DNA from: Escherichia phage phi467
Sequence record: LN997803
DNA: 38,594 nt
Direction: 5' to 3' (one strand)
Position numbers: made by a program. Every line of letters starts with the position of its first letter. Positions within the stretch are counted from its first letter, which is position 1. Below are positions 1-3,000 of the stretch, piece after piece.

Positions 1-3000
1 TTCTCACCACGAAGCCGCACGACTCCGCTGGCGCACATCGCCGGGCGTGCGCCAGAATCGCTGATTCTGTCTCTGTCATGGGATTTACTGCGAAAGTTTG
101 TTAATGGAAAGGAAGCCGCCAAAGTTGCCGACGTTATTGCGGAACTTACAACCGCTCAGGCATTTGCTGCATTTATCCTTCGTGATATCGGACGTTGGCT
201 GGTCATATTCATCCGCGACAGCCGGACCGTGATAACCGCACTCATCGCCGCGATAGGTCCAGGTGCAGGTGTTGGCCAGCATGATACGTCCCGGAAAAAC
301 AGCGCCATCCGTTTCCGTCGGTGTGGACAACACAAAGGAGGCGCTGACCGCACTCAGTTCGCTGCACTGCTCGATGCGCCAGCGGCTGATCACCTCCTGC
401 TCCGGATCAGCTTCGCTGTTTCCGTTGACGAAGTTCACCGCATCCAGAAAACGGGCGTAAACCTTACGCCTGACCACCGTTCCGCCGACCAGACTCTGCA
501 GGTCTTCCGCCATCCCGGTGACCATGCCGTGCAGATTAGAGACTTTCAGCGTTGGTCTTGCACTGGCTCCTTTGCCGTTCATCTCAAAGCCGCTTCCCTG
601 AATGGGGTACGCCTGATACTGCCGCCCCTGCCAGATGACCGGCTCACCTTTTTCGTTCTGCTCATTACAAAAAAAATAACGCTCGCCACCGACCTCCGTC
701 AGATCGACTTCCCAGAGCACGACCAGCGCGGATTGCTCCGTTTTAGTGCACTCATTGAGTGTTTCCTGCTGTATATCCTGCATCAGTGAGTGACCTCTTC
801 AAAGGTACAGTTAAAATCGGTATACATGGCATTATCCGAAATGCTCCACTCCCTGCAGACAACCCGGACAGTCCTGTTGTGTTTTGGCGGACGCCACAAA
901 AAGCACGAATCCCGGCATGACGGGATAAAAAACTGTCCAGCGCGGCACGGGAATATTCATCTGTGACACGAAATACCGGTTTAAACGTTTTCAGATCTGC
1001 ATTCAGACCACCAGCCCGTCGCTGTTCATATCCGTCACCGAACTTTACCGTAATAACAGATGGCTTTCGTGTCGTCTCCATCCCCTCGCGGGGGATCCAG
1101 TTAAAAACTTCAGACTCAGGCACTGCATAATCCTCCGTCCCGACGTGATGACTGCATAATTGACACAACCCTGCTGTCGATCAGTTCCACCAGCCCCCTG
1201 GCTGACTGCGTATCTATCTCGCCATTGCTCCCTTTATTCTGAATACTGATGTGATACACGGGAGAATAAACAAATCCACCGCCACCATTCACATTGCCAA
1301 TGGCTCTGACTCCAAGAGAGCCGTCCGCTGCCCGGGTCAGTGGCATGATAGCTTCAGGCCCTGCCTCGCCCATCAGCCCGGCACCTTTCGCAAAAGCAAA
1401 ATACGTCGGGGTATCCACAATGGTGTTACTGTAAGCACTCAGATTTGCCGATGTATAAACACCACCTTTTGCGTTTGCCACTGCACCGGAAAGCCAGTCG
1501 CCGACCGTACCAAGCCATCCTCCGGCACCGGACATGCTTTTGGAAAGTGACTTCAGCCCGTTAACGATGGCAGCGTTCATCAGAATTTTTGAAACTTCCT
1601 GGAGAATTGAACTCCCCCAGTTTCGCCAGTCCACAACATTTCCGGCCAGTGCATCGGAAATATTTGATACCAGCCCGTCCATAGTGGAAACGACAGCATC
1701 TGCCGCCTGCGAAGCATAATCGGTGGCACTGTCTGCCCAGTTCGTCAGCCCCTCCTGGAGTCCGGCATTCCAGTCACTGCGTAAAGCATCAGCCTTTGCA
1801 TAATAATCCTGCTGATCGCTGAGACGCTCTTCCAGATATTTTTCATTAAGCGATTTTTCCTGTTTCCACAGGGCTTCTTCAATTTCTCCGGCCTGATACT
1901 GTCTCAGCAACTCGTTATTTTTCTGCTCAAACGCCTGCCGGATACTCCACATTTCCTGGAGTCGTTCACGCATCCGTGAGCCTTCACCATATCCCAGCAA
2001 CTGCGCGTCGTCAGATGCCCGGGCACTGGCATTACTGTCCGCCAGACTGCTCTCATACGCAGCAAGCTGCTCACGAATCTTTTTCTGGTCGATGAGTGCT
2101 GCATTCTGCAAAAGCGTTTTTTTCTGCGCTTCTGACAGGGTTGATAATTCGCCCTGACTGACCTGATATTTCATCTTAGCCAGTTCAGTATTCTGCCCTG
2201 CCAGTGCTATCTGCTCTTTCTGCTGTTTAATCAGCCGTTTATAAATATCTTCTGTTTTTTCCGCTTCGGTCTTTTTATGCGCTTTGGGTTTATTTGCCTG
2301 GTTATTTCGCCAGGCATCCAGTGAGTTATTGATATAATTCTGTCTGGCTGTCTGATACGCCTCTCCCACAAAGCCGAGATCATCCGCAGCATAGCCCAGT
2401 CGGGCACGCTCACGCGCTTCCCCCTTAAGGCGGGACAGAGCCAGTTCGCGCTTGCTGTTATTCAGTGCGGTCTGCTGTTTATCATCCAGGGTTGCCTGTG
2501 GTAGCCGTAACGGTACATTCACCAGCCCCTGTCGCTGCTGAAGTAATTCATTACCGAGCCCGAGAAGGCGATTAAACTCGGTATGCTGCCCATTCATGAT
2601 CAACAGGGACTGATACGCTTTGTTTTGTTCCGCGGCCTGTTGACGGATCAACGCCACCCGTCGCTCCTCCAGCCCGGCAAGCACATCCTGAATGGATTGC
2701 GCTTTGCCCTGCATTTGTGTGAGACGGGACTGTTCAACTGCCAGTTGATTTGTTGCTTCTGCAAGCCCTTCTGTAACAGTTTTTACCGACGTCATGTGGT
2801 TAATCATAAAACCGTTATCGGTTGTCCAGCCCGGGTTTGCCAGCACATACTGATAGCCAGCAATTTTTTCCTGTAAGGATTTAATCTTACTTTTCTGCTC
2901 GTCAATTAACCTGTTCTGCTCCTTCAGTGCCTGTCGCGTCTTTTCCTCATTATCTGACGCTTCAGGAAGCGACATTGCCGACGTTTTCTGGCGAATTTCG

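Follow-up and report, generated by a model that had tools for sequence, protein, structure and literature searches.

Organisation of the M region in the phi467 record

The window analysed here is the whole of sequence record LN997803 (Escherichia phage phi467), a single stretch of 38,594 nt, and its left end consists of a lambda-type tail module on the minus strand, in which L, M and the tape-measure gene H are followed by the G/T chaperone, tube and head genes (Table 1). Genes H, M and L succeed one another with overlapping stop and start codons: the GTG startcodon of M overlaps the stop codon of H (GTGCCTGA), and the TGA which ends the M-like C-terminus (783-785) overlaps the ATG of L. The same order and annotation is present in relatives, where the homologues of M are labelled 'tail tip assembly protein M' or 'phage tail protein'. 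When the sequence is translated from the GTG at position 1123, codons 1-75 are M-like, but the frame is wrong from codon 76 onwards: 48 aberrant codons follow until a stop codon at 752-754, which is 31 nt inside gene L, and the M-like C-terminus (LWRPPKHNRTVRVVCREWSISDNAMYTDFNCTFEEVTH, LWRPPKH...EEVTH) is found in a different frame from the N-terminal part.

This arrangement had been described in an earlier note on the same sequence, which placed the two parts of M in different frames, located the cause at a coding-strand T5 run (plus-strand A5) lacking a single T, and predicted that a repaired M would end at the TGA overlapping the L start. All of this was borne out: the addition of one T to the run resulted in a 113-aa protein, identical at 113/113 positions to WP_001115181.1, which ends at that TGA. 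The span of 783-1081 given in the note is correct at the 783 end, but its upper limit needs to be moved to 1123, as the GTG at this position is the M start in annotated homologues and the alignment with lambda gpM already begins at residue 6, and hence the ATG at 1081 (METTRK...) is internal.

Table 1. Gene M, its neighbours and the run-length discrepancies in the phi467 record.
Feature	Position	Strand	Remarks
Gene M, predicted lambda gpM-type distal tail protein, Pfam PF05939	783-1123	-	341 nt as written; 342 nt (113 aa) after correction of the run
M homopolymer run, T5 on coding strand (plus-strand A5)	898-902	-	T6 in relatives; site of the apparent -1 deletion
Frameshifted ORF as deposited, CUW01212.1 'Phage minor tail protein', 123 aa	752-1123	-	75 native and 48 out-of-frame residues
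M C-terminal coding segment	783-899	-	38 native residues, stranded in the other frame
Overlap of M startcodon GTG and H stop codon	1116-1123	-	GTGCCTGA
Gene L	85-783	-	Start ATG 781-783
Tape-measure gene H	1116-4361	-	
A5 vs A6 in relatives	898		M gene
Plus-strand T9 vs T8 in three close complete genomes	6469-6477	-	Splits HK97-gp10-like gene (6195-6642)
A6 vs A7 in relatives	17799-17804	+	First of two opposite frameshifts in hypothetical gene 17441-18361
A9 vs A8 in relatives	18259-18267	+	Second frameshift in hypothetical gene 17441-18361
T6 vs T5 in relatives	23274-23279		Intergenic
T3 vs T4 in relatives	26906-26908		Intergenic
A1 vs AA in O26:H11 strain 11368	30590	+	Splits integrase gene (30140-31314) into two ORFs
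C1 vs CCC in O26:H11 strain 11368	32876		Intergenic; flank otherwise without substitutions over 8.1 kb

The repaired M protein

Repaired M matches the Pfam family PF05939 Phage_min_tail from end to end (110 bits with a cut-off of 39, covering positions 1-107 of the 108 in the profile); for M as written the match is 68.7 bits and covers profile positions 1-71 only. Comparison with lambda gpM (8iyk_M) gave an E-value of 4.4e-24, with residues 6-112 of the query corresponding to residues 3-108 of the chain. In phage lambda, gpM is the distal tail protein and assembles into a hexameric ring, through which the L/J tip complex is attached to the tail tube; the whole 109-residue chain is ordered in this ring (PMC10721106). 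Judged by family membership, homology and gene position, repaired M is probably a distal tail protein of the lambda gpM type with a predicted role in such a ring, and the loss of the last third of M would be expected to abolish its function. Taken at face value, the T5 in the sequence as deposited represents a true one-base deletion, which truncates M after residue 75 and thus removes the C-terminal third of a protein that is structural in the lambda tail tip; the EF467 Stx2f prophage would then be unable to build tails and become a locked-in, non-transmissible carrier of the toxin, a reading to which we give a low probability.

Distribution of the T5 and T6 alleles

The 381-nt M region has matches in 872 complete E. 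coli genomes and nine phage records, and the full-length matches listed are each 382 bases long, one more than the query. With regard to the E. coli genome 2015C-4136CT1, the missing T is the sole difference over the 381 nt, and in the INPHARED phage collection there was no 100% match to the M region, the best being PhiR49_2 (99.2%), which has T6. The two alleles were also searched for with a 41-mer that had the run in its middle, a design in which no 28-nt BLAST seed can avoid the run: the T5 version was not found in complete E. coli genomes (0/5,426), and the T6 control was present in 828 of these genomes, at 874 places. Similarly, a T5 24-mer had no matches in IMG/VR, and the corresponding T6 25-mer was found in 95 stretches. 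The absence of T5 from both the 874 places in complete genomes and the 95 IMG/VR stretches argues against a true deletion in gene M.

At the protein level, repaired M is indexed in 3,268 blocks of a collection of 15 billion proteins, and among the places listed, all ten have M intact at 113 aa, with an L of 232 aa after it. In the same collection the frameshifted product is confined to a small cluster, the 26 sequence variants of which belong to several allele backgrounds; outside this record the T5 allele was found in draft contigs only.

Further run-length discrepancies in the phi467 record

In total the record contains eight run-length discrepancies when compared with its nearest high-quality relatives (Table 1), and these split the M gene, the HK97-gp10-like gene, a hypothetical gene (twice) and the integrase gene, all of which are otherwise perfectly conserved. 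The closest complete genome is that of 2015C-4136CT1, the Stx2f prophage of which is 98.99% identical to positions 1-31290 of the window, and every single-base indel in the well-aligned part of this comparison falls in a mononucleotide run. The first 19 kb contain only 14 substitutions beside four run-length indels, and the six run-length alleles in the prophage part (898, 6469, 17799, 18259, 23274 and 26906) are all private to the record when compared with three close complete genomes. Of the reference, 6.8% lies in runs of at least four bases and 1% in runs of at least six, and the prophage indels are located in such runs in 6/6 and 4/6 of the cases, respectively. The right end of the record (30500-38594) has two run-length deletions and no substitutions in 8.1 kb compared to O26:H11 strain 11368.

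As with M, correction of the runs restored the other split genes. Removal of one base from the T9 at 6469 gave a gp10-like protein of 148 aa, identical to the reference over 148/148 residues, and an A added at 30590 gave a full-length integrase of 391 aa; in the hypothetical gene both runs were corrected, resulting in a protein of 306 aa (306/306 identical to WP_062860141.1). These private discrepancies count against a real M deletion, seven being found in addition to the one in M, two of which are in the substitution-free chromosomal flank. With eight indels in 38.6 kb, the density is one per 4.8 kb, and extrapolation of this value to a 5.5-Mb genome would imply approximately 1,100 lesions, which is implausible for a clinical isolate and typical of PGM consensus error; a genuine T5 has to contend with this number as well.

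Origin of the record and sequencing platform

Flow-based sequencing infers the length of a homopolymer from the signal amplitude, and run lengths read in this way lead to systematic run-length indels, some of which survive into the consensus. For the Ion Torrent PGM, indels due to over- or under-called homopolymers are the main type of error, and 'high-frequency indel' errors amount to about one in each kb of reference (Bragg et al. 2013, PMC3623719). The platform is thus known for exactly the type of change seen in M, again to the disadvantage of a true deletion.

The LN997803 record was described as a 'partial VT2f phage sequence of 38,594 bp', which was assembled in silico from the whole genome sequence of EF467, a HUS isolate of E. 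coli O26:H11, ST21 (Grande et al. 2016, PMC5189129). The three HUS strains in that study were sequenced on the Ion Torrent PGM with 400-bp chemistry and assembled using SPAdes, and the phi467 construct was checked by four long PCRs and RFLP/restriction digests only; the PCR1 primer, published with the position 1,985-2,005, is found in the window at 1985-2004 (PMC5189129). In word searches of the publication the terms frameshift, pseudogene, defective and homopolymer did not occur, and we found no induction or infectivity test of phage phi467 in it (PMC5189129). A later EF467 assembly, GCA_013172765.1, is named in PMC11489412, and subsequent comparative studies have used LN997803 itself as their Stx2f reference phage (PMC7366253, PMC11489412).

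Other assemblies with a deviant run length

The presence of the T5 product in other assemblies, and on several allele backgrounds, could be taken in favour of a genuine T5. We compared eleven T5-bearing contigs with the reference for other differences, and most of these have several further homopolymer-length differences, mostly shorter runs (G5 to G4, G6 to G5, T7 to T6, and A8 to A7 or A6), which split the tape-measure, gp10 and portal genes. This indicates that the T5 draft contigs are probably error-prone assemblies and do not represent an inherited allele, and it weakens the case for a real deletion that is made from them. The 109-aa version of the frameshifted product, which starts at the ATG, was found only in a single 1.2-kb Logan contig with many other homopolymer indels. 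Two T5 contigs look largely intact in their gene calls outside M (L005 from SRR18965531 and L008 from ERR4623248), so genuine T5 alleles may exist somewhere in nature, although each of the two also differs from L003 in the length of two or three other homopolymers. A recurrent natural T5 allele was also considered as the main explanation, and was rejected: most T5 contigs have other run differences, and T5 is absent from the complete genomes and IMG/VR.

The ten T5 draft contigs L004-L013 all end inside gene L, 60-300 nt downstream of M. The exact H protein of the window is found only on a contig of 4,450 bp (GCA_052859705.1), which is common to three samples and stops 158 nt into M, 64 nt before the run. 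These contig ends suggest that resident lambdoid prophages share the sequence from M/L onward as a repeat, at which short-read assemblies break. The exact portal protein of the window had no match in an exact look-up.

A different run length is present in a RefSeq complete genome (NZ_CP039404.1, strain 377323_2f), which contains the same Stx2f prophage with a run of 8 at the M homopolymer. In this genome L, M, H and the terminase gene are annotated as 'frameshifted' (7085-11358 and 17830-19590), and it is probably another assembly with homopolymer errors.

Origin of the M frameshift

The record comes from a flow platform without base-level verification, a run length is the lone difference of its M region from that of a complete genome, and it contains further private run discrepancies. 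We consider it very probable that the frameshift in M is a base-calling artefact of the deposited sequence, in which a T6 run in gene M of the EF467 prophage was under-called as T5 by the PGM. From the sequence comparisons we infer that the DNA of EF467 carries T6 at this run, in which case M is most likely intact in the real prophage and would encode the 113-aa gpM-type distal tail protein. The earlier note had offered either a defective prophage or a homopolymer sequencing error; the PGM origin, the seven further discrepancies and the absence of T5 from the high-quality genomes searched all favour the error, and the defect does not hold up as the main reading.

Homopolymers are natural hot spots for slippage, so that genuine mutations also favour these sites, and the decay of a prophage gene need not be costly for the host. 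If the T5 is genuine in EF467, the Stx2f prophage of this HUS-associated O26:H11 strain would be tail-defective and immobilised, or alternatively the run would be a hot spot which recurrently switches off tail production in a widespread tail module, but in either form this is unlikely in view of the run-length pattern in the record and the distribution of the alleles.

Even less credible, and in our opinion highly improbable, is a functional role for the run, either as a recoding site at which -1 ribosomal or transcriptional slippage yields full-length M from T5, or as a phase-variable T5/T6 switch for tail production: a -1 slip of tRNA-Phe on U UUU would indeed read ...A F L W... and thus give exactly the native protein, and run length does vary among assemblies (T5 in draft contigs, 8 in 377323_2f), but the zero frame reads CGU GCU UUU UGU GGC without an X XXY YYZ heptamer, the two-frame arrangement is not conserved (in-frame T6 in 828 complete genomes and T5 in none, 95 vs 0 in IMG/VR), 5-6 nt is a short tract for transcriptional slippage or phase variation to work efficiently, and the assemblies with deviant run lengths are also frameshifted in other genes, which points to technical noise. 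Programmed frameshifting at M was rejected for its lack of a heptamer and for the lack of conservation of the arrangement, as true recoding sites keep their two frames in homologues. With regard to a phase-variable tract, T5 was found at 0/874 places in complete genomes, and deviant lengths occurred in assemblies with other homopolymer differences or frameshifted genes. With an under-called T6 as the preferred explanation, the two-frame arrangement of M is, with high probability, an ordinary database artefact and not a biological feature.

Other features of the record and consequences for its use

The record represents a Stx2f-converting prophage, with stxA2f at 15994-16953 on the minus strand and stxB2f just downstream according to the annotation of a relative, and with tRNA-Gly and tRNA-Thr genes at 15051-15204, between the toxin and lysis genes. 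It begins approximately 79 nt into gene K (window 1-84), and the rest of K as well as I, J and the fibre genes are missing, consistent with the partial construct of the authors ending at an assembly break. At the end of the chaperone gene G (approximately 4703-4717, minus strand) the sequence reads GTT AAA AAA AAG TAG, in which the slippery heptamer A AAA AAG directly precedes the stop codon, as expected for the conserved programmed -1 frameshift of G/GT. The window has the full A8 run at this position, but in several draft contigs it is reduced to A7 or A6, and in two of those with A6, G and T are fused into one ORF. The portal gene (9393-10607, minus strand) contains a private complex change at 10062-10072, consisting of an inserted G and a 28-nt deletion (net -27 nt, in frame), which removes nine residues and alters three, the protein otherwise agreeing with the 413-aa reference at 100% of its residues; a genuine deletion and a local mis-assembly are both conceivable.

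Towards the right end, the integrase (30140-31314) differs from the island integrase of O26:H11 strain 11368 only in the first ~65 residues and is identical thereafter, and the DNA left of approximately 30.1 kb matches the Stx2f prophage. The prophage-to-island junction thus appears to lie inside or next to int, and could stem either from a real recombinant or from the joining of sequences in silico. Approximately 7 kb of the 'phage' record (31300-38594) is O26:H11 chromosomal island DNA, which encodes a DUF4760 protein, a second integrase, and a gene pair comprising a HEF_HK/HATPase_c kinase-like protein (36508-38226) and a Response_reg_2 protein (34758-36524); a PADLOC scan of the flanking island genes did not match any defence model.

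The biological weight of the M lesion is small, and its importance lies in the curation of the record. At least four phi467 genes (M, gp10-like, hypothetical and integrase) are broken by probable miscalls, and consequently conclusions on gene content or on a 'defective prophage' drawn from this record would be wrong; for the same reason the record should be corrected or replaced by a polished sequence. Were the lesion real, the toxin phage of a HUS strain would be unable to spread as a tailed virion.

Comparison with known systems

The closest solved relative of repaired M is the lambda tail tip protein M (gpM; PDB 8IYK, 8IYL, 8K35, 8XCG and 9E7M), to which it aligns over residues 3-108 of 109, and as in other lambda-type tail modules, the M gene of the window is situated between H and L with overlapping stop and start codons. 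It differs from lambda gpM in starting with GTG and in having three extra N-terminal residues, and M as written differs further in that its last 38 residues are replaced by 48 out-of-frame ones.

A frame change within the same tail module is also a property of the G/GT programmed -1 frameshift. However, the G/GT heptamer is conserved in all relatives, whereas no heptamer is present at the M site, where the split into two frames is seen only in this record and in draft contigs, most of which have other homopolymer differences.

In laboratory lambda, the frameshift in stf is a genuine mutation whose phenotype is the loss of the side fibres, and stf is dispensable. It is similar to the case of M in being a one-base frameshift in a lambdoid tail gene of a reference sequence (lambda PaPa vs Ur-lambda, PMC10721106), but M is essential for lambda tail assembly, and its lesion is most likely absent from the DNA.

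The attribution to the Ion Torrent PGM is made here from the pattern in the consensus combined with the published methods. The density of approximately one discrepancy per 4.8 kb compares with a published frequency of about one high-frequency indel per kb of reference before consensus (PMC3623719), and as with the homopolymer errors described for this platform (Bragg et al. 2013, PMC3623719), the single-base discrepancies of the phi467 record with close relatives are all changes in run length, and occur in both directions.
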